Shown here in pieces: positions 7,816 through 40,240 of a stretch of DNA of 64,000 bases; the first letter of the stretch is position 1, and the number at the start of each line of letters is the position of its first letter. Under the pieces are notes generated by a model. It was not told where the DNA came from, did no database searches, and saw nothing but the letters and a program-made list of their open reading frames with translations. The position numbers and the translations under genes are program-made. This DNA is from Chlorokybus atmophyticus (lineage: Eukaryota; Plantae; Mesostigma and Chlorokybus algae): NCBI GenBank assembly GCA_009103225.1, contig RHPI01001715.1, positions 1,144,011-1,208,010 on the forward strand, read 5' to 3'.

Positions 7816-7873
<58 letters not shown>
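7815..7873. repeat. (GT)n microsatellite ending at a single-N gap (7874)
   Basis: Direct reading of the sequence. Confidence 0.97.
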
Positions 7874-7874
7874 N

Positions 7875-14683: not shown

Positions 14684-15591
14684 CAGCCACCCCTACCCTT
14701 CCACCGCCACCGCTGCCACCGCCGCCACGCCCCTGCCAGTGCCACTGTGGCGCTGAATTGCCACAGAGCGACACGTAAGCAGCCAGCCGCCGTGAGAGTG
14801 CAGTGTCGCGCAACGACCGTCGGACAGGGGGCAAGGCTTGTGGACCACAGGCGGGAAGCTTCGTTCGCTCTTCGTTCGTCTGGCCGAATGGCTGTGGTTT
14901 CTTGTTATTATATTACACGTTGTACGCTAACATGACGACGCGGTTGACAACACAGAGCCTTGCTTGGGTCCACTAACCTCACCGCCATGCATGAATCTGC
15001 GCAAACCGCTTCCCACGCACACAATCTCAACTACTTTGCGTGCACACAGCGATAGCAAGGGAATGCTAAAGCACATGCATGACATGTGTGATTATACATG
15101 TAACCGTGTATGTAACCCTGCATTTATTAAACCCGTAAAGTACGGCAGTCACGGCGGCGGCAACCATTGGTGGGCGAGGGTGTGAAAGTGACGACGCCGG
15201 GAAGCGGAAGGGAGAAGGGCGTGGGAGTCCTTATCGTTATTGAGGCTGCTGTTGTCGTCAAAACCAGTAACAGCAACCTTTGTGGGCAAGTGATTGATTT
15301 TACTACTGCTACTGGTGCATGCTTGTATGACTGATGGAATGTTAGCTTTGTGTAGGTAGTTGTCGGGCCGCGCGGGGTCAAGTGCAGACTCGTCTCGGGC
15401 TGTCATCATGGCGGTGCCGATGGTGAGAACGTGGTGATGAACTGCCTCACCTTTAGTGGGATATCATAATGAAGGCTAAAAAAGTACCCCCCACATTGCG
15501 GCTGCCACGAGTACTGCTGGTTTCGTTAAGTTATGCATAAGGTCAGCAATGAGGAACATGCTATGGAACAAGGGTAGGAGCAGTCAACGAG

Positions 15592-15775
<184 letters not shown>

Positions 15776-15776
15776 N

Positions 15777-16100
15777 CATATTGATAATCCTGTAAAGGAA
15801 CCTTCCGCAGAGGAGGCTCCACGCAGTAATTGTGCATGCCGTTGTTGCATCCATTACATAAGATCATTAAGTCTTCATCGGCAATGCTGCCACACTTCTC
15901 ACAGCGTTTACTGCGGCCGGGGCGCAGGTGTTGAATGACGTAAAAGCCTGCCACTTGAGGAAGGTGACGTGGCGCACAGTTGCAATTAGTGATGTTGTCC
16001 TTGAGCCGCTTGCCGTTGTTGCCCAAGAGGTCAAGCACCGTAAAGGGTACACCCACATGGCAACTTTTCGGCGGACTGGACCCCTGTCCGTTGCCAGGTC
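15777..16100 (-). pseudogene. Gypsy integrase C-terminus plus PHD finger fragment (DNMT/PHD family)
   Basis: TVLDLLGNNGKRLKDNITNCNCAPRHLPQVAGF matches the sequence at 32700-32830, followed by CEKCGSIADEDLMILCNGCNNGMHNYCVEPPLRKVP. Confidence 0.8.
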
Positions 16101-16599
16101 CACATGGGCCGCGGACTGGTCTCGAGACTGACCTAGATTGGCAAGGAACGGTACTGTTCCCTGTTCCTAGAAACGACAAGTTGATGACAGGCCAATTTAT
16201 GGCCCTAATGTTGGTCCAATGTTTACACAACCGGCCGATGCTGGTACCCAAAAATGGACCAATTTTGTTACCATTTTAGTGGCATGCTGCATCACTGATG
16301 AGCCCGATGCATGGACCATGAATAATCATGCAGCGGTTTAAGTCGACATTGTCATTTGCTTCATTAACCATACTGGTCTTACAGGCTGCAGATTCCATGT
16401 GCATAATAGTGATCAACAGCGTGCACTCAAGAGCTGCAACACATGCATAAAAAAACCTTATGATTTAATAGTATTCCACCTAATACCCTGTATAAACAAC
16501 ACTACAACAATTGCTACACGCTTAAGGCGAGGTGTACGCCTGCACGCTTGCAAAGTGTGCAACTCGCCTGGACGCCTACAGCTGTGCACATGGAGAATA

Positions 16600-17300
16600 G
16601 CATATGTGTGCAAGCACACGCGTGCGCACATGCTTGAGCTCCCGCACGCCGTCCAGCATGCAGCACGCCTGACCCCCTGCAAGCCACCACTGTGTTAGCT
16701 AACACGCATGCCATGCACCTATGTGTGGCAGCAGCAACAGAGGTGTGTATATGCGTGTGCACGCATGCGCACGTGTGCCTTCTGCAGTGCAGGCGTGGGC
16801 GTACATATGTACACGTGTGCGCTTGCAGGCATGGGCAAATAGGTATGCGTGCAAGCTTGCATGTGCATATAGCCGTGTGTGTAAGAATAATGTGAGCCTG
16901 CGTGCATGGGTGCCTGCAGGCGTGCTTATCGGCACAGGCGAGCACACATGTATGCAAGGGCGGAGGGAGAGTTGCACAACCTTTTAAGCGCAAATGTTGT
17001 AGCTTGAATTGCGTGCCATAGCCTAAACCATACAGCACGCTTGAGTATGCACGTCTAGCCACGCACGCGCAAACAAGATTGAACTTCGGCACGTCTGCAG
17101 GCGTGAAGGGCAGCGTACATGTAAGTGCAAGTGCGTGGATGCATATGTTTGCACCCACATGCAATTGCATGTGTCTTTGCGTAGGATATGCACAATGGTG
17201 TGTACGCGTGCGCAAGCACGCGCGCCTGCAAGCAAGCAAGGCACACAGTTGTAGCAAATGAGCAACTACATACCTGCATGGCACTTCTCAAGCTACATTC
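16600..17300. repeat. Low-complexity alternating purine-pyrimidine tract (GCAT/GCAC/GTGT rich)
   Basis: Many overlapping ORFs of C/A/H/V/M/T composition; no conserved domain. Confidence 0.6.
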
Positions 17301-18059
17301 TTCACACGCTGGCACTAGGCACCATCATCATCCCAAAAGAAAAGGGCATACATGTTCACCTACAACTTCTTAACTTGGACTGCACACGTGCAGCTCCACC
17401 TGCTTACAAACAGCCAGCTGCCGCGCCAAGCATAAGTTACAGACTTGTGCGTGGCAACATAGCGAAGAGGGTTACGCTTTGCAAATTTGGGCAATTAGCT
17501 CACACGACATGCGCAAGCTAAGAAGCGCATCCCCCACCTCTCACCTTGTCTCACCAAATACAATACCAATTCCTTTGGCAGCTTGCGCTTCAGCTGCAAA
17601 ACCCAATGGTTGTGACACATAAGTCTGTTGCTCAAGTAGTCATTGACGTAGTGTAGCAGCAACGCAGATGACCACACAACTTGTACTCGTGGCTATGTTG
17701 TACGGCAGACTGCCGGTGGAGACCTTCAACCTGCCAGCAACAATTGTAACATGTGAGCTCAACAGCAGCACTAGCACAAACACAACAGATATGACAACAG
17801 TGACATGACTAGCCAGCAATACCTGCAGGCATTGCCGGCTTGGCTGCAAGGTGTGGAGGAGGAGGCAAGCAGGAGGAGGCGAGCAAGTCAACAAAACTAG
17901 TAAACACGGCTTGGCGAACCAATATTGGGCCAGTACGCTTACGAGACCACCAATGATGTTGCGCGCCGATATTGGCCTGGCCTCGTGGAACAGTGGTCCG
18001 CGCATGAATTGCCCTGTGACCTTCAGCACCTTGTACATGACACGCTGCACGCAGATGTT

Positions 18060-19250
18060 CAGCTGCATGGTGTTTTGGAGGGTGTTATGAGCACGTGCAC
18101 ATGCCATGTAAAAGACAAAGTCCTGCTTCGCCGACTGCGCTGCTTGTAGAAGCCAATGCGTATGCGTTCGTAGCGTAGGGTGTCATTGCGTTCGGCGATA
18201 TGTAGCTTGTTCTTTGTCAGGGGCACCAAGTGGCGGAAGAGGTCAGTGCGGACCTTTAGGTCATAGAGCATGAGGTTCGGGTCTTCAAGGTTGACCAACA
18301 CCCGAGTTGCCTCCTGATGTGTGAGGAAAAGAAGAAGTGGCTCGCGTCCAAACAAGAGTTGGCTAGCCCGTATCAACTCTTGTTATTACAAGTACACCGG
18401 TGTACTTGTGGAGGGCAGCCTGCTTGGACCACCTTGGGAAGGTGATCACTCCGGATGCGCTTGTTGTGGTCGATGACATACTTTTGGAGGGCATTTTTAA
18501 TGGTTGGCATGGTGCGCTCTGCCAAGCCGTCAGCTTGGGAAAATCCTCGGAGGTACGTCTGTGGCCAATGTAGGTATGGTTGATGAGCTTACTGAATGCT
18601 TTGTGGAACGCGGTGGCTTGTCATTCATGACCTTAGCGCAAGAACTAAAGCGGCTGAGGACATGGTCGAGGAATGCTTAAGCAACTCCTCTGCTGCTCTT
18701 GGCTGGTAACGGGAGCAGCTCTATCCATATGGAAAAGAGCACGATCATGACCTGGATGTACTTGCCGCAGGCCGAAGGAGAGGATTTTGCAAAAATGTCG
18801 ATGCCCAGCGGTAGGATATCTCAGAGATGGAAAGTGGATGCAGCGTGGCGCTGCGGGTGTTGAGGCTGACACGGACAAGGTCACAGTGCCCATGGGAGCG
18901 ATTTTCACATATCCGCGGACTGATGTGTACATGCTATGCCACTGGATTTGTGCGCGCACTAACTTGGCTTGAAGCTGACAGTACGCTTGACACCAAAGTG
19001 ACCCAGCTCGGTGTGAAGAGTTGCGATGATGCCTTTTCGTAGATGCAAGGCAGGTACCTCTTGTCCTCAATGCGGATATGTCGAAGGAACGCCCGTCCTA
19101 CAGTGGTAATATCACGTACGCTGGCTTACGCGGTCACGCATTGGTGCACTCATTGATTACAAGACAAAAAGTCCTAGCTGCCTGTGTTGCAGGAAGGCGA
19201 GGGAGTGGGTGTTGAGCCAGTTGTCCTGTTGAAGGTCTGTGTGTGCGTTG
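18060..19250 (-). pseudogene. Decayed Gypsy integrase (DNMT/PHD family); probably the same element as 15777-16100
   Basis: LGHFGVKRT zinc-binding region (~19000), HPQADGLAERT-like core (~18520), LLFGREP..DTLRYERIRIGFYK (18059-18376). Confidence 0.75.
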
Positions 19251-19309
19251 GGAAGGGGGGGGTGGGGGGTTGATGTCGTCAATTACCCCCTCATTGGAGA
19301 CCTCTAGTG

Positions 19310-20167
19310 TGTCGTGCATGCCATGGTCGAGGGTCACGCTGTCTCGGGCACACTGCAGACGAGCGCTCATAAGCGCAGCATCAGCATGCCCACGGCATCA
19401 TTGGAGAAACACAAATAAAGACAACCGCCCAGACATCGGCATGGGCTCGGGGATGAACCTATGTGAGGATCGGTCAGTAGTAGATCCGGTTACGCTCTCC
19501 TCCTTATTATACCTACTGTGCTGTAATACACATAGTAAATAAGCACCTACGATAGGTAGTGCTGTATACACAGTTCTTTGCATGAGTGGATGATGTATTA
19601 CACTGTCAAGTGAGGTGAGTGAATAAGCAACTCAGATATGCTATATCCTAACTAATGCAGCAAACACACCACCGCCAAGCTCACATCAACGACAGGCACA
19701 TCGCACAAGAGCATACCCTGTGTCTCACGTGGTAAGGCAGTCCTTGGCAACCAGGACAGTGTGCTTCCAGTTCAAGTCGCTTCACAAGCTCTTAAAGTCA
19801 GAGTCTCTGCTCTTAGTACTCATAGTGTCACTAGTGAGTCTAGTGACATGACTTCCTACTTATACATGTCAAATCATGACTGTGCAGTGCCATGCGGGCA
19901 TTAGGCCAAAGGTCACATCAAGGCCGTATACTACTACGAAAATAACCCAAGACTTGTTATAGCACAGGAGCTGATAACAGATTCCTAAATGATCAACTAC
20001 ACGCGGTTCCAACAGAGAGGTCTATAGGGTAGCCCTAGCTACATGCTACATGGAGTGCGAGGTAGCTAGCAACAGGCTGGGGCGCGCGCGGTCTCCATGC
20101 TGGTAGCCTGGGGCTGGATGTAGGCATGCTCGAGGAGGACTGGCATGCGAGGGTAGTTGGCATGACA
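19310..20167 (-). repeat. Full LTR (~858 bp) of the DNMT/PHD Gypsy family with 8-bp terminal inverted repeats
   Basis: Plus-strand ends TGTCGTGC..GCATGACA. Homologous to 42598-43167 and, inverted, to 59105-59690, where it precedes gag. Confidence 0.8.
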
Positions 20168-20169
20168 GC

Positions 20170-20418
20170 TGTCGTGCCTACCATGAAGGGTCACGCTGTG
20201 TCGGGCACACTACAGACGAGCGCTCATGCCGTGGGCATGCTGGTGCTGCGTGCAGCATTGGAACACAAACAAAGACAACCTCCCAGACATAGGCTCCCAG
20301 GCATAAGCTCGGGGATGAACCTATGTGAGGATCAATAGTATGATCAATAGTAGAGCTGGTGACGCTCTCCTCCTTACTGTATCTACTGTGCTGTAATACA
20401 CACAGTCAACAAGCCACA
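20170..20418 (-). repeat. Internally deleted 3' LTR of element B2, preceded by a polypurine tract (20419-20424)
   Basis: Homologous to 19310-19545. Minus strand reads AGGGGG|TGTGGC and ends GCACGACA. Confidence 0.65.
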
Positions 20419-20469
20419 CCCCCTGAAGTTCTAGGGTAGCCTCCTGCTCCAGGACTCAGCTTTTACCGA

Positions 20470-20635
20470 CTGTGTGGGGGACCGTTAATGCGGCAGTCAT
20501 CGCACCAATACTTCCACAGCGGCACCTTGTCCTTGGAGGGTAAAGGCAGTAACAGTGCATGCCTTGGTTGCAGCCTTCGCATAACAGCATCACCGGGTCA
20601 TTGTCGGCACTGCCACATTTCTTGCAGCGGTTGCG
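20470..20635 (-). pseudogene. PHD finger at the end of element B2 integrase, separated from the rest by a nested insertion
   Basis: RNRCKKCGSADNDPVMLLCEGCNQGMHCYCLYPP, frameshift, then KVPLWKYWCDDC (C4HC3). Confidence 0.85.
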
Positions 20636-20776
20636 TGTGACGGTGCTCGTGCCTTGTTACATATGAGTTGGTCCAATCAACAACCCTCTCACCAAGACAA
20701 GGTATTTACACCGGAACCTTGCCCCCTCTGCCAAGCACACGCGTGCGCCCCGCCACTCACGTACGTACGCGCGTGC
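20636..20776 (-). repeat. 141-bp terminal fragment of a family-A LTR
   Basis: Collinear with 32012-32152; 14 differences counted (~90% identity). Starts exactly at the LTR TG/CA end. Confidence 0.85.
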
Positions 20777-21612
20777 TGTCATGCGCGAGCATATAGTGTC
20801 ATGTGCATGGTGCCCTCGGGGCTGGCAGCCTACATGGGCCCTATGACTTTGGAGCCCTGAGCCATTATAGAGGCTCTTTATGTTAGGTTTTCACTTGGGA
20901 CTCGAGTTTGGGTCGTCTTTTACGAGTGGGAGGCGTATTCGAGGCGTATCCATAGCCAGATACAGAGTTTTCGGCGTAATTGAGTTAGTATGGTATCCCG
21001 CGCAGCTGTTTGGGAGTCATGACTTGTAGCAGATGTAACTGACAGTTGGAGTGGTGGTTTGGCGTGGGGATGGACTTAAAAGGTGCGTCTTAGTGTGTAT
21101 TTAAAGAGGATAAGCTTTGGGGAGCCATTGCTATCCATTTACTACCACGTATCGGCCTCATAATGACGAATGATGTTATGTAGCTGGTGCAGCCTGTAAG
21201 TCATTAGAAGTTGAAGAGTTGGTTAGGAGTTGGTTGGGCATGGACTCAACGGTGGTATATACGCCTTAGTTGGCTTGTGTTACAATTGGTTGAATGCAAG
21301 TTGGCTCACTGGAGTGCAAGCAAAGCCTTCGGGAAGAGGTTCTTGGCTGAGTGTATGCGTGTGTGCATGCTTGCGTGTGTATGCGCGTGTGCCTTGCTTG
21401 GTTGCCTTGCATGAAGAAGTGTGTATCATTGTTGCGACCTTGATGCACCGTATGAGCTGCCTTAGCATGGGTGAGGACTGAGTTTCATGAGCAAACGGCT
21501 GATTGCAAGTCAAGTTGGGGTCATCTTGCGTTGCTTGTGCAAGGAGATACGCATCTTTCACTTGCATTCAACCCATCAGCTGAGTTTGCTCGAGTTGAAG
21601 TGAGGAGCAGGC

Positions 21613-23058
21613 GTGTTCATGCCCCTACGATCTGGTGAGGATTGGCACAAGAGACCCACGAAGGCGGCTCCAAAGAGAAGAGCGCCGAGAAGGGCGATCA
21701 CTCCGGTGGTGGAGGGCGTTGCTAAAGAGGTGGAGTCTTCGAGTGACGAGGAGTCCGACTTCGAAGACGAGGGTGGGGTGATGTTTGACTCAGCTTCAGC
21801 CATGGATAGCACACCGAAGTTCAGTGGGAGGCACGGCACGGCGGACTTACGCGACTTCATCGACCGCTTCGACTTTGCGATGGTCAAATGGGAGTACCGC
21901 GACAAGTCGGGGTGGGACGAGCACAAGGCCTTCAAGATGCTGCCTCTATACCTTAAGGATGAAGCCTTGAGCACGTGGAGAGAGGTCAAGGAGCAGCTGG
22001 AGATGTGAGAGAGGGCATTGCGCGTGGGTGCACCGGCTGAGTTTAAGGCGGAGTGGAAGAATGAGCAGCCCGTGACTGAGTTCAAGGCGCTTCTAAGGAA
22101 GACTTACCCACAATCAACCCCTGCCAAGGTTCGCGAGCTGAGCTACTTCAAGCGCCACACCGGTGAGACGGCGAGAATGATGTACATGCGTATGCTCAAG
22201 CTCTTAACGGACACGGACTACAAGGTGATGACGGATCAGACCGCGGCGGTGGTGTACCTTCAACAACTTGAGGGGGACTTGAGGCTGAAGGTGGAGACCA
22301 TGTTGACCACTCAGTCAGAGTTTGGTACATACACGCTTGCGGATGTGTTGAAGGTGGCCGAGACGGCCAAGATTCAGCATGAGTACCTCAAGAACATCGA
22401 CCGGCAGCGTCGTGGGTTGAAGTTGCTTGAAGCATCGGAGGAGAAGAGCTCTTCCAAGCCCGTGGCAGCAAGCAAGGCAGCTGGTGGCAAGTCCGGGCAG
22501 CTCAAGCACGCCAACAAAGCGAGTGTGGAAGGTGTGTCGGGTGCCAAAAGCTGGTCGTGCGGCGAGCAAGGTCACATCGCAAAGAATTGTGGGAAGGGTG
22601 GCAAGAAGGACGTGTGTTCTCATTGCAAGAAGGGAGGGCACGTCGAGGCCAAGCGTTGGAGTAAGCACCCAGAGCTGCGTCCACAAGCACGAGGAGGTGC
22701 AGCCGGTGCTCACTCGGGTGTGAAGGAAGAGCCTTCAATGTTAGAGGTGACAAGAGCCCTAGCGGCTATGCAATCTGAGTATGCATCGTTGAAGAGCATG
22801 CTCGAGCGAGGGAAGTGGCCCGAGAGCGGAGGGAGGGATGTGCCTAGCAGCTCCGGAAGCTACCTTGCGTTTGGTGCGCTCCACGGAGGCACGGAGGTGT
22901 CAGCGGCGGCTACAACGAGAGCGTCGGTGCGCGGCGGGGCTGCACCAGCTCCCCCGACTATGATGGTCGAGGAGGAGGCCGCACTCGTCTGCGAGGAGGG
23001 TGTGGACCATGATAGGATGCGTGCACCACCTGCCCGCATGCCAAAGTCATTTGAGTAG
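21613..23058 (+). pseudogene. gag: gag of B1 (one in-frame TGA at 22006)
   Basis: TPKFSGRHGTADLRDFIDRF; knuckles SWSCGEQGHIAKNC and CSHCKKGGHVEAKRW. Confidence 0.85.
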
Positions 23059-23619
23059 CTGCCAACAACCCCGTTGGAGCAAGAGAGTTTGCATCCGGAA
23101 GGTGCGAAGGTGCAGCCGACTGCTACGGCAACGGCGCGACGTGAGGTCGGCGTCGGTAGCGGTGGTGAGCACAAGACAGTGGAGGAGCTGCTCCAAGTTT
23201 GTGTAAAGCTTCTAGAAGAGTCTAAGATGCTTTACCAACAGCCCCCAACCCGAGTCCATGAGGGAAACTCGGAGTTGACAGCGCCGTTGGAGGGTGTCGC
23301 GACGGTGCTGGTCGGGCAGCCTCTTCTTCGCTTGGAGGACCTTGGAGTCACCAAGGAGCAGGTGGTAGGGCTGTTGCAAAGCTCTCTAGACACCATGAAG
23401 AGTGCCTCCACAAAGTCTCATGACCAGATAAGCAAGTCTTAAGGAGATATGATGGCGCAAGTAGGCCGTATGGCTGCGCGGGCAATGCTGGCGGCGTCGG
23501 GAGGGCCCGCGTCGGAGTCGAGTTCTCTCACTCAGCTTGGAAACAAGCTGGAGGAAGGTATGGGGAGTGTAGGAGGGATGTTGGCACAGCTTCCCGCCAC
23601 TCGGCCGGGCTTGAGAGAG

Positions 23620-24060
23620 AAGATTTCGCCCAATGTGGCTATGGTAGACAACCGGAGTGGTCACGTCAGCCTGGACGGCTTTGTACCAGATGTTGTCTTG
23701 GTAGATACAGGCGCACAACCTGTCATCTTAGGTTCCAGAGCTGTGGCAGGCCTAGGACTTACCTCCAAGGAGTGGGAGACATGCCCGTTCATGATTAAGA
23801 CCTCGGCGGGGACCGTCGAGACGGTGCGAGGCATCACCGTGCAGCCGGTGGAGATCCATGTGACTGCAATGGGAGGTGCTACCACATCATTCAGAGTTCG
23901 ATGCCTCATCACGGATGCAAGAGGGTATGATGTGCTGCTCGGACAAGAGTTCTTGTTCCCCGTCGGTGGCGGTGTTGATAATTGGATCGAGCAAGGGTTC
24001 TTTCGGCCGCGTTGGCGCACGGGAGGGGGAGAGAAGGCCTACTTTCCGTTGAGCATCACG
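23620..24060 (+). CDS. pol: Aspartic protease domain of B1 pol (within ORF 23449-25521)
   Basis: VLVDTGAQPVILG..YDVLLGQEFL. Confidence 0.88.
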
Positions 24061-24432
24061 CAAGGGGGTGTCGAGAGGGCTCCAACCTCAGCATCTGCAC
24101 TGTGGGCGTGCTCGAGTTGGCGACCAGCTATGGGGTGGCTTGGTGACAGCGTCGACTTGTACAATGACCATGTGGAGAAGGGAGACGTTGTCTTCAACCA
24201 CATGGAAGAGGAGAGACCTCTGGAGCTGCTACAAGCGGCTCATGCTCAGCAACAAGAGCTGGAGATAGCTGCACAACACCGTGCTCAGCGGCATCAACAA
24301 GCTTATGAGAAGGTTGGCCATGCGTGGACACGAGATGTGATGGCATTGGCGCCTCCGTTGCTGCCCGAGGGTGTGCGAGCTGTACATCCGCCTATCAACT
24401 ACAACACCATTGAGTGGGAGGTCCCCGAGGGC

Positions 24433-25385
24433 GGTGTTGTAATGGTTGAGCTGTTCGGTGGCATTGCAAGTGGGCTTGCGGCTGCGTTGAACGCCGGCAT
24501 CAAGGTGCGGCGTTACGTCCATGTGGACCCTTCCCCAACGGCACAACAAGGTGCTCAACATCATGTGAGGGTGTTGTTGACGAAGTACCCGGACCTGCTA
24601 TGTGAGAGTGCGGTGAAGGGCTTCCAAAGTGCATGGCCTCAAGACATTTGCTTAGTGGGGCCACATCATCTCGCGGCAATCGGAAAGGTTGATTTGCTAG
24701 TAGCGGGGTGGGAATGCCATGGGCATTCACGGGCTGGTCATGGGAAGGGATTGATGGATGCGCGCTCATCATTGTTTTGGGAGTTGATGCGTGTTATCAA
24801 CATGATTCAGCAAAGACAAGAGCAGCCCATGGCGTACATCATGAAGAATGTGCCGGCTGAAGACGATAAGCGCAAGCGCGTGAAAGAGGACTATCAGCTG
24901 GTGAGACATGTTCTAGGCCATGAGCTGGTCATGGATGCGGCACGGCATGATTCGCGCGCACATCGGCTGCGTGTGAAGTGGACAAACCTCGCGCCTATCG
25001 AGATACTTCGCATGGTGCAGCAAGAGTATAAAAGACCGCAAGGTTTGACAGTCAACCAGGTGCTGGAGCATGAGCGCACAGCACAACAGGTCAGCAAGGC
25101 TGATCGGCCGCCTCAAGAGGTGGTGAACCAGGTCGGGCACGACATGGCAGCGTTGCCGACGCTGGTGACCTACCCAGGCTCTTATGCATTCCGCAACGAA
25201 GGGCCAGGGCTGGTGTGGGACTCACGACACAGCAGGTTGGAAGAGCCAACAGCTGATGAGCGCGAGCGAGTGATGGGGTTCTTGTCAGGTGCGACGGCGG
25301 CGCCAGGACTGAGTGAACAACGACGCCGAGTGCTGCTAGGGCAAGCCATGGACCAGAACAGCATGGTGTGGCTGATGGTTGTCAG
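24433..25385 (+). CDS. DNMT3-like C5 cytosine methyltransferase domain within Gypsy pol
   Basis: Motif I VELFGGIASG; II YVHVD; III QDI; IV AGWECHGHSRAG; VI YIMKNVP; VIII AHRLRVKWTNL; IX ERERVMGF; X LLGQAMD. Collinear with the DNMT3 catalytic domain. Confidence 0.92.
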
Positions 25386-25559
25386 CTTGGCGGCACATGA
25401 GTTGGCATCAGGCTTCGTGCCGGTGCGACAGCAAGCACGTCAGGCGCCTGCGCCTCTGTCGAGGGGGGGGAGCATGGTGTACATGATGGTGAGAGTAAAG
25501 GGGTGTCTTTTTCGCCTGTGACAGCTGCAAGTGGCAAGAAAACGGCTATAGATGGTGCC

Positions 25560-28540
25560 TTGAAGCTTGAGAAGGCTACCGACCAGACCATGGAGTGGTG
25601 TATGGGCGAGTGTGTGACACCAGAGCACTGTGAGCGGCTCGAAGCATTGTTGGCTCGCAAGCGCAATTGCTTCGCCTACTCTATCAAGGAGTTGGGAGTT
25701 TGCAACTTCTACACAATGAACATTGAGTTGACCTCTCCTGAGCCCATCTTTCGTCGGCAATATCGGGTGAGTAAGGTGGAGAAGGAGTTCGTGTTTGACA
25801 AGTGTGCTGACTTGTTGGAGGCCGGACTCATTAAGGAGTCGACTTTAGACTTCTCGGCTGCGACAGTGCTGCCATTGAAGAAGGATGCGCAGGAAAACTG
25901 GACCTCAAGGAGGATGTGTGGTGACTATCGGCCATTGCATTGAGAAGACCAAGGCTGATTGCTACCCCATGCCTATTCCGGAGGCAATCTTCGATGACAT
26001 CGGCGATGCAAAGGTGTTCTCAATTGTGGCCGACTTGAGTCAAGGCTTCAACCAGATTGCCATCAAGCCTGAGGACCGTGGCAAGACAGCATTTTGAGAA
26101 GTGGATCAGCTCTACCAATGGAAGGTCGTGCCGTTCGGCTTGAAGAACGCACCAGTGAAGTTTCAGTGCGTGATGGATGGTGTGCTTCGTGGGCTACCCT
26201 TTGCAAGATGTTACATCGATGACATCTTGGTGTTTAGCCACACAATGGAGGAGCATCTTGTGCACTTGGAGCGCGTATTCGAGCGCGTGCGCGAGGCCGG
26301 CATGAGGTGCCACCCGGAGAAGTGCTTGTTCGGGGCTGATCGCATCTCGCACCTGGGGCATGAGATAATGCCAGACGGCGTCTGCGTGCAGCGAGCAAAG
26401 GTGGATGCCCTGCTGCAAGTGCTGACGCCGACGGACATCAGTTGACTACGCGCATTTCTCGGCTTGGCGAACTACTATCGGCGGTTCGTCGAGGGGTACA
26501 GCAAGATTGCAAAGCCCTTGAATGAGTTGTTGAGGAAGGAGAAGGCGTGGTGCTGGTCGAAAGAGTGTCAACGCGCCTTTGAGCTTCTTAAGGAAAAGCT
26601 GTGTACTGCGCCAGTGCTGAGACGGGCAAACTACAACCGTCCTCTCATCCTACACACAGACTGGAGCCGCCTGGGCATAGGGGCCGTGTTGTGTTACAAG
26701 GATGACAATGGGAAGGAGTATGTGGTGGCGTACGGCAACCGAAGCAACAACGCTGAGGCCAACTACAGTTCTTATGAGGGGGAGTGTCTGGCGGCGGTGT
26801 GGGCCATTGTTCACTTCAGGCCGTTCTTGTATGGCCGTCCCTTCACGTTCATCACCGATCATCAGCCTTTGCAGTGGTTGATGTGCAACGACAAGCTCAT
26901 AGGGAAGCATGCCAGATGGGCGCTCATACTGCAAGAGTATGAGTTTAGCATTAAACACCGAGCTGGTGTTGACAACATGGACGCGCATGGGCTGAGTAGG
27001 AACCCAAACCCATCGTTTGTGGACGAGAGTGAGGCATGGCATGACTATGCCATGCCCGTGGCTGGGTTTTTGGCCTTCCGTGTGGCGTCATTGCTTGTGT
27101 TGGCGGGTTCCGCGGACGTGTGCGCAACCACACGCCACAACGCAGCAGATGAGCGCGATGGTGATGGTATTATGATGGCTTTGGCATCTGCACCAGCCCC
27201 GACGGTCGACAACGTTAATGGGGAGGAAGCCGAGGCTTCAATGGATGTATGGGGTGATGAGCAAGTGCTTGCTTACCTCAAGACCGGGCTGTTTCAAGCT
27301 GGGTGCAGCACGGCGACACGTGATCGTGTGTGGCAACGTGCGCAACGGTTTCGGTGGGAAGGAGACCACCTTGTGCGCTTAATGCATGATGGAGGTGTGA
27401 GGATTGTGCCTCAACCACATGAGAGGAAGCCGCTTGTGGAGCTGCTTCATGAGAAGATGGGCCACTTTGGTGTCAAGAGGACACTTGGGCTTGTGCAATC
27501 AGCATATTGGTGGGCTGGCATGCAGTCTATCGTAGCGGGAGTGGTCGCGAGTTGTGTGGAGTGCGACAGGGTGAAGGCGAGCTTCAATGCCAAGCACCCA
27601 CAGCTGCACCCTCTGCCAATACAAGGACTATTCTATCAATGGAGCCTAAATTTAGCCGGAGACCTGCCAGTCAGCAAAAGAGGCAACCGCTACGTGCTCG
27701 TGATGATTGAGCACTTCTCAAAGTGGGTTGAGGTGGTGGTGTTGCCGTTGAAGGAGAGCAAGCTAGTTGCTGAGGCTTTCCTTGACCAAGCGCTGAGCAG
27801 ATTCCGAGCCTGTGCCGAGGTTCTCACATGACCAAGGCACTGAGTTTCTTGACCAGTTCGATGACTTGTTGGCGCACGCCTTCATTGATTGTCGCAGGAC
27901 TTCCCATGATCATCCTCAAGCTGATGGGCTTGCAGAGAGAATGGTACAGGTGGTGAAGAAGAGGCTTCGCAAGTATTGTCTCACTCACAACAAGAGAGAC
28001 TGGGACTTGGCGTCGGCGTGGCTGGGCTACCGCATGACGCGACAAGCTGCGCTGAGCTCATACAGCCCCTACTTCTTATTGTATGGGAGAGAGCCCATAC
28101 TACCAACAACAATCAGGAGGCAAGTTGAGCAGGAGCTTGACTTGGAGGATCCCACTGTGTGAGTAAGAGAGATAGCAAAGCGTGCAGAGTTGTGTCGGCG
28201 TGTAATGCCAATGGCACTTGGCAACCTGCAAGTGGCACAACACCGCGACACGCTGCGCTATGCCAGGGTGAGGAGTGGCTTCTACAAGCCAAGACTGCAG
28301 AAGTTTCAGTCAAAAAACTTCATCTATCTGCAGAGGAAGACCAAGGAGACATTGGACACGAGTGCGAGTCGCACCATTCTGCGTGTGAAGAAGGTCCTCA
28401 GCAACGGAGTGTTGTTGCTGGAGGGAGCTGATGCCCGCACTACCCAGGAGCACATGAAGAGCTGCGCTCATTGTCATCTGCCCAACGTGGATGACTACGT
28501 GGATCCGTCGACGGCAATATCAGGTGTGGATCACCGTTGA
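25560..28540 (+). pseudogene. pol: RT, RNase H and integrase of B1 with several stops and frameshifts
   Basis: [81 protein letters not shown]. Confidence 0.92.
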
Positions 28541-31500
28541 CCGTAATAACTTTGTTGATCGTAAATGGTCCCAACCAGCGTTCATTCAGCTTGCGAACTC
28601 CCGTACGCACCCGTACATGCTTCGCGGAGAGTAACACAATGTCGCCTTCCTGAAATGTGAGGTGTCGGCGATGCGCGTCCGCGTGCTGCTTCTGCCTATT
28701 TTGTGCCACCAATAGCGCCTTTCGAGCTGCCTTATTAATGTCCGCGCACTTTGTGAGGAAGTCATTAGCTACCTCTACACGCACGTCATGTCGTCGCGGT
28801 GTTCATGCTGTCAACGGTGTCAATGGATGTTGCCCGTAGTTCATAAGGAAGGGAGTGATACCTGTGCTGGCATTGTGGTGGTTGTTGATCGAAAATCACC
28901 AACTCAAGCAGCTCCGCCCAATTGTCTTGTTGCGCGTTAACCTAGCAACGCAGCATGTCCTCAATCACACGGTTGGCCCGCTCCGTTTGCCCATCGGTTT
29001 GCGGGTGGAATGCCGTGCTAAACATCAGTGTAGTACCCAGTGCACTATGCAATGCCTACTATAACTTACTTGCAAAGCGCGGGTCGCAATCACGAACAAT
29101 GTTTCGTGGTAATCCGTGAGAATGAAACACTTGCTTCACGAACAAGCAGGCGGCCTCCGGTGCCGTGCAAGACTCGCCACACTTTGCCAAGCGTACCATT
29201 TTGCTGGTTTGCACGACGAACACAAATATAGCGTTGTACCCTTCTTTTGTCTTTGGTAGCCCTATGATAAACTTGCGATAATACCCTGCAAGGCTAAAAA
29301 AGGACATAACCTCCTTACGTTAGTCGGGGAAGCCCACTCGCGCACCACCTGCACTTTGTTGGGGTCCGGCTTGATGCCTTCAAGCGACACAATGTGGCCT
29401 AGGTACTCCACCTCTCAAAGCAAGAATTTGCACTTTTGTAGCTGGGTGTACAACTTGTGTTCGCGCAAACGCTGCAACACGCGCCGTAGAAGTGCCACGT
29501 GCTCCTCTTTTGTCTTCGCGTACATCAAAATGTCGTCGAGGTACACGAGGACTCCCTTACCAATTAAGTCAGCGACAACGCTTTATTAGCGTTTAAAATG
29601 TTGCTGGCGCGTTCGTAAGTTCGAAGGACATGACCAACCACTCGTAGTGCCCATCACGTGTTTTAAAAGCTGTTTTCTCCACATCCTCGGGCGCGATGCG
29701 GATTTGGTGATAACCTCCAGCAAGATCAAGTGTTGTGAAGTACTGCGCACCTTGCAATTGCTCCAGCAACTCGTTGATACGTGGGAGTGGAAAGCAATTT
29801 CTCTTCGTGATGTTGTGAAGAGCTCGATAGTCGACGAACATGCGCAAGCTCTCGTTCTTCTTTCGTACAAACAAAATAGGTGCACCATAAGGGGACTTAC
29901 TAGGCCTGATGTAGCCTCTTTTCAGCAAGTCCGCCACCTGCCTCTCGGCCTCTTCCAGCTCCAAGCGTGACAACTCATATACGGGTCGATATGGTGGCTT
30001 GTGCCCGCCCTCAATCAGCTCCACACGGTGGTCTATGCTCCGTAGAGGTGGTAGACTAGATGGAAGTCCGTCCACCATGATATTTTGGTATTCTTTAACA
30101 AGTTTACACACCTCGGGGTCCATTGTAGCCGTCTTAACATCGTCACTCAGCTCCGGTGCTGACTTTGCAGTGTTTTCGCACACAACGCACAACCATGCAG
30201 CCTTTGCCTTCCGTGGAGACGATAACTTCCTTGATTGCGCATAAGAGATCTGGGCAATTGTCGTACCACCTGATTGTGCGTGCCGCGCCTCGATGACGTC
30301 CAACGCAGCTATGGCAAAATCTCTCTTGCTTTCCATAAAGCGATCTTCCTCTTCAACAGAGCATGCGCGCATACCTTGAATGGACTCTCCACCGTTTCGT
30401 TCGATGGTGAGCACGCGCTTCCTCTAATTGATGGATGGATTATGTTGCTATAGCCACGGTAGTCCTAAAATCCCGTCAAACCCGCTCCGTAGGGTGATGC
30501 AGGAAAATCGCATATTCTCTTTCATCTTGCCAATGCGAACGCACAACTCTTTGGTCATAAACGCAGCGCCATTACCTCTAGAGGGTGGCTCTCCATCAGC
30601 GAGCTTCACTTCACCTCGTAATGACGAAAACCAACCGTAACGCCGCGCAATATCAATACTCATAAAGTTGCTGTTGGCACCGCTATTACTCATGAGCTTA
30701 CACTCCCTCCATCGTCCTTGGTCATCGCAAATGTGTGCTCGAAGCCCGAAGTACTTTGTTGTCTCCTCTTTTGCATAACTCACCACCGTTGGCGCGTTCA
30801 TAGCCATCTCCTCTTGCTTTCTTGATGGAAATGTCACAGCATCCGTCCGTGCATGAGGCTCCCTCTTATCCCCAGCAGTAGCCTCCTCACCTACTGGGGG
30901 AAGTTGTTTTCCTGCTCCACGCCAATTTGCTCCATGCTATTGACGCGACAATCGCGGCGATGGTTGCCATCCGGTGTTGGCCTTTGCGTGCTTCGTTTGA
31001 GGCATCCGTACGCCAAATGCTCAGTCGACCCACACGCATAACACTTGCGCACCCCTTTACCTCTTTCACCACGTCCGCCATGCTTCGCCTCACTTCCACG
31101 CGTGTGTATGGCACCCACCTCCATTGGTGCAGGCCCAAAGTTAGCTCCACCTTCATTGGCAACCGCTAAACTTGGTTCTCCTTGTCTCCATACATGTTGA
31201 AAGCCTCCCCGGGGCTGATCATCATGCCTTTGCCTACAATCAGTGTTTCTTGTGGTGGACTTGAAGTACAGCGCGTCGAGACGCTGCGCGATGCATATAG
31301 CCTCCGCGAGTGTCTTAGGGTCCCGTAGCTCCACTTCTTTACGCCCCGAAGGTTTTAAACCACGTGTATACCTGTCCAGCTGCTCCTCCTCCGTCATATT
31401 GGGTATGGACATCACCAATTGCTGAAACGCAGCCGTGTACGCCATCACCGACCCCATGTACAAGGGCTGCAAGTTGGTCGCTTGCGGCCTTCACGCTCTC

Positions 31501-32681
31501 AACGGGAACAACAAATTGAAGCCTGACCTCCAGTGCCAACTCTTCCATGGTGGTCATTGGTAGCGCCAACCCATTTGCGACACGCGTACATCGATGCCTT
31601 CACCATACAAGTGCTGCACCTTTAAGCAACGTCGCTGCACCCTCCACGAGCAGATGCGTGGGCACCTCCGTGAGCTTCAACCAAGACGATACTTGAAAAA
31701 TCCATTCATCCACTGCATTCATCACGTTGACCCTTGAATGGCTTGGGCTTTGGCACCTTCACATGCACGCGCGAGCTTGATGCCATGGGAACTTGTACAC
31801 GCGCCATCGCATGCTCATACGCCTCGCGTTGTGCTTGTGCCGCCGCTTGAGTGTGATGAAGCTCTTCCCTCAATGCTAAGATGGCAGCATGAAGCTCTTC
31901 CATGCGAGCATCCTCCATCTCCACTAACACACCACACTCCGCTTCCGAATGAAAAGTGTAAACGCCCACACACTTCCGCTCTCCCTTCGTAAACCGTGCT
32001 CTAATACCAGTTGTGACGGTGCTCGTGCCTTGCCACCTATGAGTTGGTCCAATCAACAACCCTCTTACCAAGGCACAGTATTCACACCGGAACCTTGCCC
32101 CCTCTGCCAAGCACACACGCGCGCCCCGCCACTCGCGTACGCACTCGCATGCGCTCGAAGCTGCACACCGACTTGTGCAGCGCCTTGGATTGTCACACAA
32201 GCAAGCACACACCAGTGGACACTCGCTAGCAACCCCTGCTAACCACCACCAAGCTTGCACACAAGAAACTAGGGAGCTAAAGGTTGTATTGCAAATTGTA
32301 GAATGTCACTTTTATACCTACCAGTCTGCACATGCTACTATCTAGGCAATTCTAGCGCTAGTCGGAACTAGAAGCTAAGATATTCTTGCAGAATCTTGTA
32401 GTACACTTCTAGACCTTTCCGACGCACCAAAGATTTCTTCATTTGCTGCTCATATGGTTAAGTTATACTACTTGGCGCCAGGCCCTTCCAGAAATCTGGT
32501 CGAGCCCTTCTCGACTGGCCCTCCGTTTTCTGGCGTCTTCCAGACTGGCCCTGGGCCGGTCGACATCTGCGGCAGACTCGCAACTCGCCGATATCCGCCA
32601 CAAGTCTTGAAAAACATGATATCTCACAAATAAGGCCTAAAATGGCCATGAAAATCACGAAATTTGGCCTTGACTGTTACA
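28535..32681 (-). mobile_element. Ty3/Gypsy copy A2 (5' LTR 32012-32681, PBS 31998-32009, gag, PR, RT, partial IN); RNase H deleted
   Basis: PBS TGGTATTAGAGC; gag knuckle; [16 protein letters not shown]; YLDD at ~29530; YYRKFI fused directly to IGLPKTKEGYNAIFVFV; WLGPFTI. Confidence 0.92.
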
Positions 32682-35297
32682 TCGCGGGTGTTGGATCTTG
32701 CCGAAGCCAGCGACGTGGGGAAGATGACAGGGCGCGCACTTCACCATGGTGTCCTTCATGCGCTCGCCGTGCTGTCCCAGAAGGTCCAGTACCCCAGTGG
32801 GATACACCTTTAATACGTCATAGACAGTGCGCCCGCCGGAGGTGTCGAGGGTGTCGTGTGTGGCCGCCATAGACGAAGTCCTCTTGGTTGGAAACGGCGT
32901 TCTCGCTCCTTGCAGAAACCGCTGCGTCACACGCTCGTAGCGAAGCGTGTTGCGCAGATTGTTGAAGGCCATGGGGACAATGTGCTCGAACAGTGCGCTG
33001 CGCACTGTCAGATCATGTAGCATCTCGTCGGGGTTGTCGAGATTGTCCACCTCTCTGTCGACCTCCTGCTGTGCGCGGAAAGGGAGCAATAGTTGCCTTC
33101 CAGATAGTAAATAGTACGGGCGGTACTCCCGCAGTGCTGCCTGATTGGACAGCCGATACCCTAGTGCTTCCCATGCGAGGTGGTCATCCCATGTGTTCTT
33201 CTCGTAGTCAAGGACGTACTTGCGAAAAGCCTTGATGGTCTACACGATACGCTCAGCGAAACCATTGGCTTGTGGATGGTTGCGTGAAGTGCGGCAATGG
33301 TTGATGAAGCATCTGTCCATGAGCTTGTCGAAGGCTCCTTTGAACTCCGTACCTTGGTCGATAATGACTTCAGCACAGCTACCGAAGCATCCGAGTACAT
33401 GGGAGAGGAAAGCGTGGGCTACTCCCCTCGCTGCTCTTGTCAAAAAGGGGCACCAGCTCCACCCACTTGGAGAAGTGCTCGATCATGACGAGGATGTAGC
33501 GGTTGCCTCGTGTTGATGGCGATAAGTCCTCGAGAATGTCTAGTCCCCAGCGGTGGAAATGTGCCGAGGTGGGGAGGGGATGCAAGATGGCATTGCGCGT
33601 GTTTAGGCTCGCGCGGACCATGTCACAGTGCTGGCAGTCGTTGACGCACTTGTGCACCTGTTTGTGCACCCATACCCCCAGTACTTAGTCCTGACCAGAC
33701 TAGCCGTGCGCTTGACACCGAAGTGTCCAAGCTCGGTGTGGAGGGTAGCGATGATGCCTTCTCGCGCAGCTAGTGTTGGGACCTCCTTGTCCTCGTTCTG
33801 TATCCGTTCATACAGCTTGTTGTCAGCCCAGCGATAGTGCTGAGTGCATTAACTAATGCGGTCCTTCTCGCGCGCGCTCATGCCTGCTGAAAATTGTCTA
33901 GTATGGAGCAGTGCGAGGGATGGCTTGTCAAGCCAGATGTCGTGTGTCGGTGGGTGCCAACTCCTCATCGTCCACCTCAGGGTCGTCGGCAATCGCTTCT
34001 TCTGATAAGGGGTCGGTGACGATGGGCCCGAGAGAAGGCACCTTCTCGTCTGCTGCTGCCTCGGTGGCTTGGGTCTTGCGCCTTGAACGTAGCGCAGCGA
34101 CAGCGAACATGGCCGCTACACCTGCAGGTGCGGTTGCAGGACCCAACTCGTGTCGTGCTCTCACATCGTTGGTGCTGAGGTGGGGGTTACGACTAAGGCT
34201 GTCTACAATCTGGTTGGACAGGCCTGCCCAATGCTCCACCTCAAAGTTATACTCCTGCAGCAGTAGTGCCCACCGTCCCAACTTGCCTGTCAGGTGCTGG
34301 TTGGTCATCAGCCACTTCAGTGGTTGGTTGTCGATAATCAGTCGAAGATGCCGTCCAAGTAGAAAGGGGCGGAAGAAGGATATGGCCCATACTGCGGCGA
34401 GACACCCCCCCTCATAGCTGCTGGAGTTGGCGTCAGCGCTTTTGTTGCTACCGCTGGCATACGACACTACGCGCTCCTTCTTGTTGTCGTTGTGTTGCGC
34501 GAGCATTGCTCCCATGCCGAGCTTGCTCCAATTTGTGAGCAGAATGAATGACCTGTTGTAGGTCTCTGCTGAGAGGAAGGGAGCTGTGGTGAGTCGGAGC
34601 TTCAACTCTTCCAGAGCCTCTTGTTGTGCCTCTTCCACAGGAACTCCGTGTTCCTCCGCATCTTGTTGAGTGGCCGCGCGATTTTTGCGAAGTCCTAGAC
34701 AAACTGTCTATAATAGTTGGCAAGGCCGGGGAAAGCACACAGTCGCGTAAGATTTGTGGGGGCAGGGATGGCCACCAGTGCCTCCACCTTGGCCTGCTGT
34801 AAATACACACCGTGGGGCACAATCATGTGCCATAGGTACGGTACCTTGGGGGTACAGAAGGTGCACTTGTCGGGGTGCACCGTCATCCCTATTTTTTTTC
34901 AATCTTTGTAGCACCACTTCCTCGATGTGCCAAAGATGCTCCTCATTGCTGCGACTGAAGATGAGGATGTCGTCGATATAGCGGCGTGCGAAGTCAATCC
35001 TTTGAGGGCTTTCCATGACGCGCTGGAACTTGGCAGGAGCATTCTTCAGTCCGAAGGGCATGACCTTCCACTAGTACGGCTGTCGGTTGCCCCAGAAGGA
35101 GGTCTTGTACTTGTCCTCCTTTTTTATGGCAATGTGGTTGTACCCTTGGCGCATGTCCAGGGTACTGAAGACTGTACAGTCTCCTACATTATCAGAAATA
35201 CCTTCTGCAGTAGGCATTGGGCACCTATCTTGCTTGGTCTTATTGTTGAGGGGGCGGTAGTCCTCGCATGTGCGCCGGTCTGTCCAGTTGCCTGCTG

Positions 35298-35741
35298 CCG
35301 CCGATAGTAGTTCGCCAAGCCGAAAAATGCGCGTAGTCAACTGATGTCCGTCGGCGTCAGCACTTGCAGCAGGGCATCCACCTTTGCTCGCTGCACGCAG
35401 ACGCCGTCGAGCACTATCTCATGCCCCAAGTGCGAGATGCGATCAGCCCCGAACAAGCACTTCTCCGGGTGGCACCTCATGCCGGCCTCGCGCACGCGCT
35501 CGAATACGCGCTCCAAGTGCACAAGATGCTCCTCCATTGTGTGGCTAAACACCAAGATGTCATCGATGTAACATCTTGCAAAGGGTAGCCCACGAAGCAC
35601 ACCATCCATCACGCACTGAAACTTCACTGGTGCGTTCTTCAAGCCGAACGGCACGACCTTCCATTGGTAGAGCTGATCCACTTCTCAAAATGCTGTCTTG
35701 CCACGGTCCTCAGGCTTGATGGCAATCTGGTTGAAGCCTTG
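35298..35741 (-). repeat. 444-bp inverted near-identical copy of B1 RT segment 26041-26484, inserted into B2 RT
   Basis: Same length, five differences noticed by eye, and the same premature TGA. Confidence 0.93.
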
Positions 35742-36039
35742 CGCCTTCGGAAGGTAATAATGGTCGCGGCCGTAAAGTCCGATGTAAACTCCTCGATCAG
35801 GCCTGCATCCAATAGAGCCGTGCACCTTTGCTTCACCACGTCGTCTTCCAACTTGGAGAGTCGGTAGTGTCGTTGGAACACCGGTTCGGTGTCCACCAAC
35901 TTAATGTCCATCTGGTAAAATGAGCAGCTGCCTAGCTCCTTCACGCTGAAGCAAAACTGGCTCCTTCACCTGTTTAAGAGAGCCTCGAGTTGTTCTCGTG
36001 TCTGACCTGTAGCCGCAGTGGTCCAACGTCACGGGACTT

Positions 36040-36910
36040 GGACCCATGACTAATAACGACTGCTGAAGAGAATCCTATGGCGCGTTCGCGCTCACGATCG
36101 TTGGGTTCCTCCAGCAGGCTTGTATTGAAATCTAACATCATGCCTTCGCCTTTGTTGCGGAAGGCGTATGATCCTGGGGATGACACAAGAGTGGGCAGCG
36201 CACGGCGGTTGACCAGGCTGGTTGCACTGGTAGAAGTGCTGGTGATTGTGCCGTGCAATCAGGGTTCAAAGTAGCGTTGACGGTGAGATTGCGTGAGCGA
36301 CTGCTGTGCAGATATTCATTAGCGAAGATATCCTCGACTGTAGCCGGGTTGGTCCACTTGGCGCGGACACGATGAGCACGAGATCCACGACGCGCTGCGT
36401 TGATTTTGAGAGGATGCCCCAATAAGGAACACACCTGTCAAAAGCTGTTGGCCACGTGATGACGATTATTGTCCTCGGAGTGCATGTTCTTAATGATGTA
36501 CCCCCGCAAAAGGCCTGGAAATCTGGTTGCTTTGCAGAAGTTTAATGACGCGCATCAGCTCCCATAATAGTTGCGAGCGAAGATCAAAGAGTCCTTGGCC
36601 TATACCTGCCCTGGAGTGTCCTTTACACTCCCGCCTTGCTATCAGTAGGTCGATGTTGCCCACCGCCAAGAGGTGATCCGCAGTGATCAAACGGATGTCA
36701 TGTGGTAGTGCCTTCCGACTGCCTTGCAGTGCTGATATTGGCAGCTGCTGCGGATAGCATTTGTGTAGGTGGCGCGAGTGGTGGCTTAGGGCAATCTGTG
36801 CGAATGGATCAAGGTCACAGTAGAGGTACTTGGTGACCGTCATGCCAGTGTTGAGGACAGCGGCGAGGCCACTACCTATACCTCTAAACAGTTCCAACAG
36901 AGCGATGTTT
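36040..36910 (-). pseudogene. Second DNMT3-like methyltransferase domain (frameshifted)
   Basis: LELFRGIGSG; YLYCD; HDI; ARRECKGHSRAG; YIIKNM; AHRVRAKWTN; PTLVSSPGSYAFR; RERERAIGF. Confidence 0.88.
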
Positions 36911-39900: not shown

Positions 39901-40059
39901 TCCTCCAAGCGTGCCATACGCGCCATAAGGGCAACAATATGGTCATCAACTGGCGGGTTGGCTGAAGCCTTGGCGGCAACAACGGCAGCGCGCGGACATC
40001 GTTCAAGTCCCTTGCGCTGAGGAGGACAATTCTTCCCCCTGTAGCCTTACTCTTCCTTG

Positions 40060-40240
40060 CAAGCATTGGCATTGTTGTTGTTGTTATTATAACCTCCGGT
40101 GCGGTTGCTATTGTAGCTACCAGAGTTGTTGCCGTTGTGGCCTCTAGTGTTGTTGCTGTTGTAGCCACCAGAGTTGTTGCCGTTGTGGCCTCCAGTGTTG
40201 TTGCTGTTGTAGCCATTAAGGTAGTTGTTGCTGTAGCAGT
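40060..40240 (-). repeat. 54-bp coding tandem repeat (N/G/Y-rich) in B2 gag
   Basis: GTTGTTGCCGTTGTGGCCT..GTTGTTGCTGTTGTAGC unit repeated; a related tract lies at 61320-61440. Confidence 0.7.

Follow-up and report, generated by a model that had tools for sequence, protein, structure and literature searches.

The PR-DNMT frame lies in a dead Gypsy copy

The window (the whole 64,000-nucleotide stretch of Chlorokybus atmophyticus contig RHPI01001715.1 analysed here) contains copies, or parts of copies, of a Ty3/Gypsy retrotransposon, numbered 1 to 4 (Table 1). Copy 1 encodes an aspartic protease (PR) and a C5 DNA methyltransferase (DNMT) in a stop-free frame of 692 codons at 23443-25521 on the plus strand, as identified from the list of open reading frames and from Pfam. 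The preliminary description had presented this as an uninterrupted 690-aa ORF. An open PR-DNMT frame is indeed present, but it is not a natural unit; it is a stop-bounded fragment of gag-pol, with limits that result from the decay of the copy. The same frame can be followed upstream through the gag region across in-frame stops. The reverse transcriptase (RT) lies just downstream of the DNMT, as had been reported, followed by RNase H (RH) and integrase (IN); the RT is in a different frame from PR-DNMT and carries more stops and shifts. Copy 1 lies within the LTR of a different Ty3-type element, and its 3′ end was presumably lost through a later deletion. A PHD finger had been described as accompanying the integrase. 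PHD fingers do occur in the window, at 20629-20534 in copy 2 and at 16038-15790 in copy 3, but copy 1 has none, being cut at 28540. Copy 1 is a dead, broken Ty3/Gypsy retrotransposon copy.

All 30 bins of copy 1 are covered by contigs of two public runs. These contigs are mostly less than 95% alike, which indicates that the family, referred to below as Gypsy-DNMT3, is multi-copy in those two runs. Both at position 23440 (the stop) and at 27828 (the frameshift) the contigs depart from copy 1, so that these breaks are likely private to copy 1. Two contigs that span the DNMT-RT border each have one gap relative to copy 1.

Table 1. Features of the Gypsy-DNMT3 copies in the window.
Feature	Position	Strand	Remarks
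Copy 1 Gypsy-DNMT3 element	20777..28540	+	TGTCATG at 20777; 3′ end (PHD and repeats) gone from 28540; inside LTR of another Ty3-type element
Copy 1 gag region	21604..23442	+	PR-DNMT frame; stops at 22006, 23056, 23440; zinc knuckle remnant (zf-CCHC, E 0.007)
Copy 1 aspartic protease	23692..23955	+	PF13975, E 2e-7, above Pfam cut-off; residues 84-171
Copy 1 DNMT3-like C5 methyltransferase domain	24439..25392	+	Motif I from 24448; Cys 24715-24717 intact; motif VI Glu to Lys at 24844-24846; R-x-R 24964-24972 intact
Copy 1 RT and RNase H	25401..26940	+	Frameshifts and stops at 25941, 26095, 26443
Copy 1 integrase (H2C2 zinc finger, rve core)	27415..28540	+	Frameshift ~27828, stop 28160; ends before PHD
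Copy 2 whole span	19310..43167	-	A1, gag 41215-39749, PR, DNMT, RT, RH, IN, insertion 32681-20636, PHD, B1, A2, B2
Copy 2 repeat A1	42594..43167	-	Starts TGTCATG; 86% identical to A2
Copy 2 DNMT	36043..36915	-	PF00145, E 2.5e-5; frameshift ~36500; motif VI KNM
Copy 2 PHD finger	20510..20635	-	PF00628, E 1.3e-5; parted from integrase by inserted LTR element
Copy 2 3′ end	19310..20414	-	G-run; B1 20414-20170 (ends CACGACA); 2-nt GC spacer; A2 20167-~19545 (starts TGTCATG); B2 19544-19310 (ends CACGACA)
Copy 3 remnant	15790..19276	-	Integrase 19276-18104; PHD 16038-15790 (E 3.9e-8); no DNMT in window
Copy 4 5′ part	59105..61430	+	Starts TGTCATG at 59105; repeat A extends to ~59687; gag 60550-61430

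Other copies and nested insertions in the window

A second copy had been placed at about 36040-36910. It proved to be a divergent element on the minus strand with the same order, PR-DNMT-RT-RH-IN, in which PR (37548-37241) and DNMT are followed by RT, RH and IN to 32703, and it is ~45-57% identical to copy 1. A Ty3-type LTR element (Ty3_capsid, RVT_1, SH3_Tf2-1) at 20636-32681 on the minus strand, flanked by a 5-bp duplication that reads TCGCG/TTGCG, is inserted in copy 2 and parts its integrase from its PHD finger; it is in the LTR of this element that copy 1 is nested. Positions 1-2226 are a 97% identical copy of the 5′ part of the LTR element. It is noted that a 444-bp piece of the copy 1 RT (26041-26484, plus strand) is found inside the copy 2 RT (35298-35741, minus strand) at 99% identity and with two stops in common; it is either a recent break-repair filler copied from 9 kb away or an assembly artefact. 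Since the flanks of copy 2 are mismatched, this copy may be a recombinant. At its 3′ end it borders on the linker of the copy 3 integrase, and at its 5′ end directly on a decayed LINE (~43200-47500, minus strand) with an endonuclease-like start and an RVT_1 match (E 7.7e-9). A long poly-C/G run adjoins the PHD of copy 3. No DNMT was found downstream of copy 4 within the window.

It should be mentioned that assembly gaps (63 N) lie at 15570-15776, 48081-48141 and 7874, and the structure across them is uncertain. Direct repeats of ~480 bp at 7868-12000, 98% identical and 3652 bp apart, enclose a 587-codon frame (9540-11303, minus strand) with no Pfam match and probably represent a young non-autonomous LTR element. 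Short repeats, tandem or in pairs, are present at 5378-5569, 48773-48972 and 4388-4952; they comprise units of 93 nt and 69 nt, a palindrome of 64 nt (48773-48836) and a 110-nt pair 452 bp apart. An intron-rich host gene at 49190-55148 (plus strand) encodes a NIDO (nidogen-like) domain and repeated PKD-like modules; its exons match EukProt record P0188 at or near 100%, with P0189 as a paralogue. P0188 bears the label Chlat1, which stands for Chlorokybus atmophyticus in a published reference list (PMC10739892); the host is accordingly most likely this streptophyte alga, and a land plant was rejected as the source of the window.

The methyltransferase domain resembles DNMT3

The 23443-25521 frame scores as a C5 methyltransferase on PF00145, the profile named for checking in the preliminary description, with an E value of 2.5e-7 and 30.9 bits against a cut-off of 22. 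The LFGGIA, AHRLR and ERVMGF motifs listed in that description are all present. The nearest solved proteins by sequence are DNMT3A, DNMT3C and DNMT3B. An alignment-based structural model (pLDDT 95.2), taken in place of a single-sequence model with a pLDDT of 33, has DNMT3A/B as its top folds, with a Foldseek E value of 1.6e-19. When a profile of 39 family members was compared to the PDB, DNMT3A scored 87.5 bits and DNMT3B 76, ahead of DRM-type entries (43 and 35) and M.HhaI (37). The term DNMT3-like is thus upheld on the basis of similarity and fold, DNMT3A, DNMT3B and DNMT3C leading both searches.

Motifs I-X of the domain are colinear with those of DNMT3A and unrearranged. A DRM identity was rejected: the motif order is not circularly permuted, and the 35-43 bits of the DRM entries extend over part of the profile. 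A host DNMT3 gene was also rejected, as the DNMT is without introns and lies inside pol. The domains follow the Gypsy order PR-RT-RH-IN with a DDE integrase, and the intronless DNMT belongs to a polyprotein with RT and RNase H; in copy 1 it is in frame with PR, and the RT is offset by a frameshift. The element is very probably a new member of the Gypsy-DNMT3 kind known as KnitGypsy-Dnmt3.

Catalytic residues

The motif VI glutamate of C5 methyltransferases is required for activating the target cytosine. The domain had been described as having a complete set of C5-MTase motifs. This is not the case, as the motif VI Glu is replaced by Lys in both window copies, giving KNV at 24844 in copy 1 and KNM in copy 2. 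This Glu is found in 109 of 109 homologous proteins and in 79 of 80 metagenome loci, the exception (L048) also having Lys. Of the residues expected in an active enzyme, copy 1 keeps the motif IV Cys, the motif VIII Arg-x-Arg and the F-x-G of motif I, and has lost the motif VI Glu. The catalytic Cys is present in 108 of the 109 proteins, and the motif IV dipeptide is mostly E-C rather than P-C (78 E and 28 P among 109). Copy 1 deviates at 4 of 61 conserved positions, motif VI among these, and copy 2 has further Gly-to-Arg changes in motifs I and IV. With the motif VI Glu lost, both window enzymes are probably dead. In each copy the Lys arises by a single G-to-A transition, and the copies are rich in such lesions; private decay is therefore more likely than a fixed change.

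Family members, layouts and selection

Protein searches gave 113 relatives, 72 longer and 41 of similar length, with no K. nitens element protein among them. In metagenomes, an alignment-based scan confirmed 325 of 596 stretches, the best 80 of which are the loci counted throughout; a scan with a single protein query gave 14 pattern matches and zero relatives. The 80 loci include duplicates of one place in two assemblies (L031/L032 and L079/L080). The order gag-PR-DNMT-RT-RH-IN-PHD (layout 1) is found in 62 of the 80 loci and in Closterium proteins, and a Marchantia protein (P0006, 45% identical) has gag-PR-DNMT. A second order, RT-RH-DNMT-IN-PHD (layout 2), is found in 14 loci and in the Haematococcus proteins P0066 and P0072. 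The remaining four loci are too short for the layout to be called. The PR-DNMT-RT order of copies 1 and 2 is a family trait, as had been suggested, and does not occur as an isolated insertion. A search for intact copies, also suggested then, led to P0140, an unbroken 2300-aa gag-PR-DNMT-RT-RH-IN-PHD polyprotein. A 51% identical relative, P0073, is recorded as a protein of a bacterial MAG; the 2.4-kb contig that encodes it was likely binned there from a plant or an alga.

The fusion of DNMT to RT is not universal, since L002 (5083-5085) and L007 (4661-4663), which are separated by a dS of ~1.4, each have an in-frame stop between gag-PR-DNMT and RT-RH-IN-PHD. The stop suggests either read-through or an independent start, and production of the DNMT in the same amounts as Gag. 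For the DNMT domain of the relatives (not of the window copies), dN/dS ranged from 0.09 to 0.53 in the 9 pairs, out of 14, for which it was measurable, being 0.09-0.19 in five and 0.28-0.53 in four; among the intact L001, L002 and L007 it was 0.09-0.12. As judged by these ratios, the domain is under purifying selection in the relatives. After 32 of 90 rows were dropped as near-duplicates, the two layouts separate in both trees, with a support of 88 for the DNMT (quick search) and of 98 for RT-RH. The trees are unrooted; one RT-RH outgroup aligned over 39 columns and the other was a long branch.

Split repeats, junction and target duplications

Direct repeats split as A1...B1-A2-B2 surround the Gypsy domains in copy 2 and in L023, L036, L039, L049 and L079. 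In copy 1 the TGTCATG start is all that is visible of the repeats, the 3′ end being lost. TGTCATG, or a sequence one change from it, begins all 25 locus 5′ ends, some of them from duplicate loci, as well as window copies 1, 2 and 4. The B repeats terminate in GACA, so the element termini are TGTCATG...GACA. A G-run directly precedes B1, and B1 is joined to A2 by a two-base spacer that is always GC, AC, GT or AT, that is, GC or a C-to-T derivative of it. The exact CA-GC-TG junction occurs in 13 of the 80 loci, two of them of layout 2, compared to 1.4 (maximum 5) over 30 shuffles. Within the window, the junction pattern with one mismatch allowed is not enriched (6 found, 7.0 expected), and none of the 25 locus ends has the junction before the 5′ end. 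Heterogeneity from end joining is slight at the A2/B2 border.

Target duplications of 4 bp flank five of six complete loci (L036, L039, L049, L079 and L037), or five of seven when window copy 2 is included; there is none in L023 or in copy 2 (CCTT versus CACT). L037 has a shorter A...B form. No tRNA-type (TGG-type) primer site follows A1 in the seven ends inspected by eye. A canonical LTR retrotransposon was rejected on these grounds, as the 5′ end has A only and the G-run is followed by B, not by TG. Domain scans found rve and H2C2, and no tyrosine recombinase family in P0140, P0145, P0047 or the two L002 ORFs. An element of DIRS type (DIRS, PAT or Ngaro) was rejected in view of the DDE integrase domains without a recombinase and the 4-bp duplications. 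Taken together, the TG...CA ends, the CA-GC-TG junction and the 4-bp duplications point to an integrase cutting a circle-type junction.

Proposed mechanism and alternatives

We propose that copy 1 is a dead Ty3/Gypsy copy and that, in intact members, the DNMT3-like enzyme located between PR and RT likely acts on the cDNA of the element itself, methylating it ahead of integration; we would put the probability of this reading at roughly 0.65. Self-methylation of element cDNA was put forward as a hypothesis in 2018 (PMC5890265), and the preliminary description had rightly treated it as one. The polyprotein would be processed by its own protease and packaged as in other Gypsy elements, and the packaged DNMT would meet the new double-stranded cDNA and methylate it. 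We consider this sequence of events somewhat better than an even chance. The methylated incoming DNA could mimic host chromatin, or could fix its own state after insertion. As for activity, the Klebsormidium Gypsy-DNMT3 domain gave no methylation in yeast, a result its authors describe as inconclusive; CG methylation in yeast is reported for a related DNMT3 borne by a dinoflagellate retrotransposon (PMC5890265).

The G-run before B suggests that plus-strand synthesis begins there, and the repeat made by RT would therefore be B-GC-A. In circular or end-joined cDNA, the DDE integrase could cut each strand of the palindromic junction after CA, in a staggered manner, with GC lost and two processed ends produced. 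We regard such opening at CA/GC/TG, which would give the observed ends, as an evenly balanced proposition. A one-repeat circle would yield A...B and a two-repeat circle A...B-A-B, and both forms are observed; recombination between B1 and B2 is another possible origin of A...B. The other product expected from a 2-LTR circle, A-B-A at the 5′ end, is seen in none of the 25 ends (some of them duplicates), so that the junction-cut model needs an unexplained asymmetry.

The PHD fingers of KDM5, UHRF1, BAZ2, CHD4, PHF21A and AIRE are readers of unmodified H3 tails, and the PHD finger of the family is nearest to these. By this resemblance the finger would read unmodified histone H3 tails and steer insertion, a role that we put forward tentatively, at slightly less than even odds.

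The DNMT may instead have been retained, in the lineage of Chlorokybus at least, as a DNA-binding or decoy module with weak catalytic activity or none, the motif VI Lys being then fixed in the family there rather than a private lesion. The Lys in two of two window copies, compared to one of 80 loci, the inactivity of the Klebsormidium domain in yeast (PMC5890265) and the predominance of E-C in motif IV are consistent with such a role. However, Cys and Glu hardly vary in the family at large, the Lys codons are single G-to-A transitions in copies with many other lesions (4 of 61 positions off in copy 1, Gly-to-Arg in motifs I and IV in copy 2), and the Lys of L048 indicates that the change arises sporadically. 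We find this explanation improbable, and similarly so an enzyme active in trans or after integration, whose target would be the site of insertion, further transposons or the chromatin of the host rather than the particle cDNA. In L002, L007 and Marchantia-like proteins the DNMT closes ORF1 after gag and PR, apart from RT, and so could be made in excess; in layout 2 the DNMT adjoins integrase-PHD. Action in cis is nevertheless the simpler reason for purifying selection on the domain, and the K. nitens methylome is ordinary according to the published account (PMC5890265).

Two further explanations concern the origin of the domain and of its position. The DNMT could have come from a phage or a bacterium and merely resemble DNMT3: on the family profile, three phage DNMTs from among the best matches (one of these sequences being incomplete) reach 60-65 bits, which leaves DNMT3A a margin of ~22 bits, and phage DNMT clusters take ranks 2 and 3 in the ESM Atlas at 0.96, equal to the streptophyte cluster. 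Against this, DNMT3A comes first in both the sequence and the fold searches with its 87.5 bits, phage records all stay below 80% coverage of the query, with 23-32% identity among the ten matches listed, and a published tree groups the Klebsormidium element domains with Dnmt3 (PMC5890265). A phage or bacterial source thus appears slightly less probable still than the two alternatives above. A PR-DNMT join without function, produced by a single chance insertion or by misassembly, might be entertained for a window so heavily nested, with 63 N gaps and a 444-bp copy 1 piece in copy 2. It is refuted by the family data, namely the same order in 62 of 80 loci and in named genomes, the unbroken polyprotein and dN/dS far below 1, and we give it almost no weight. 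Methylation of the element's own cDNA is the reading that we retain.

Comparison with known elements and significance

DNMT capture had been described beforehand as known from dinoflagellates and charophytes. The concept is known, but the charophyte described in the published account is Klebsormidium nitens, not Chara (PMC5890265). KnitGypsy-Dnmt3 of K. nitens (de Mendoza et al. 2018, PMC5890265), compared here by its description, has an intronless, unrearranged Dnmt3-like domain in a Gypsy pol, DIRS-like repeats with Gypsy domains, purifying selection and a charophyte host, all of which resemble the present element; it differs from it in that the host here is Chlorokybus and the window copy is dead. 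For KnitGypsy-Dnmt3, the text consulted is silent on domain order, PHD finger, TG...CA ends, junction and target duplications; some of these, such as the domain order and the PHD, may be shown in Fig. 4c of that paper. SymbioDIRS-Dnmt3 and SymbioLINE-Dnmt of Symbiodinium also are retrotransposons bearing a C5 methyltransferase, that of SymbioDIRS-Dnmt3 being of DNMT3 type and CG-active in yeast. Unlike the window element, these belong to other orders, with a tyrosine recombinase or as a LINE, and are described as independent captures (PMC5890265). DIRS elements of other lineages are reported to carry adenine methyltransferases, whereas the methylase of the window family is a C5 enzyme (PMC5890265).

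The split repeats A1...B1-A2-B2 are shared with PAT-like and Ngaro elements, for which a circular intermediate has been proposed (PMC7192593). In contrast to the description of those elements, the window family carries a DDE integrase and has TG...CA ends and 4-bp duplications, and the full-length proteins scanned gave no tyrosine recombinase. EpiLTRs/DAM-LTRs are likewise Gypsy-like and combine a DNA methyltransferase with a chromatin reader; they are described as differing in having a DNMT4-related enzyme, DAM and a chromodomain, in Cymbomonas and Euglena, and their authors consider the capture distinct from that of the streptophyte Gypsy-DNMT3 (bioRxiv 10.64898/2026.05.21.726589). Gypsy-7a_cRei of Chlamydomonas is likewise a Gypsy element of a green alga, its gag-pol includes a PHD finger and its insertion is biased to intergenic sites, but no DNMT is listed for it in its description and its LTRs are near-conventional (PMC9940879). 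In the literature text searched, mostly freely accessible and without figures, there is no account of the junction, the target duplications, an integrase PHD, the two layouts or a Gypsy-DNMT3 outside Klebsormidium.

DNMT capture by Gypsy elements was known already; the present analysis adds the junction, the ends, the target duplications, the PHD finger, the two layouts and members in Marchantia, Closterium and Haematococcus. A more speculative view, to which we give about one chance in three, is that of one old Gypsy-DNMT3-PHD lineage across green plants (Chlorokybus, Closterium, Marchantia and Haematococcus), in which the DNMT would have moved between two slots of pol, the cDNA would be self-methylated, and the integrase would cut a single CA-GC-TG circle junction instead of linear ends.

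The intact natural polyproteins (P0140 and L002) allow the 2018 question, the activity of a Gypsy-borne DNMT3 and its DNA substrate, to be tested, and the conserved junction with the 4-bp duplications offers a concrete substrate for studying the processing of split repeats by a DDE integrase. It is the junction-cutting route, together with the spread of the family over green plants, that deserves further attention. With a streptophyte that branched off very early, a liverwort and a chlorophyte among its carriers, the family would imply a capture much more ancient, or more mobile, than a single event in Klebsormidium.
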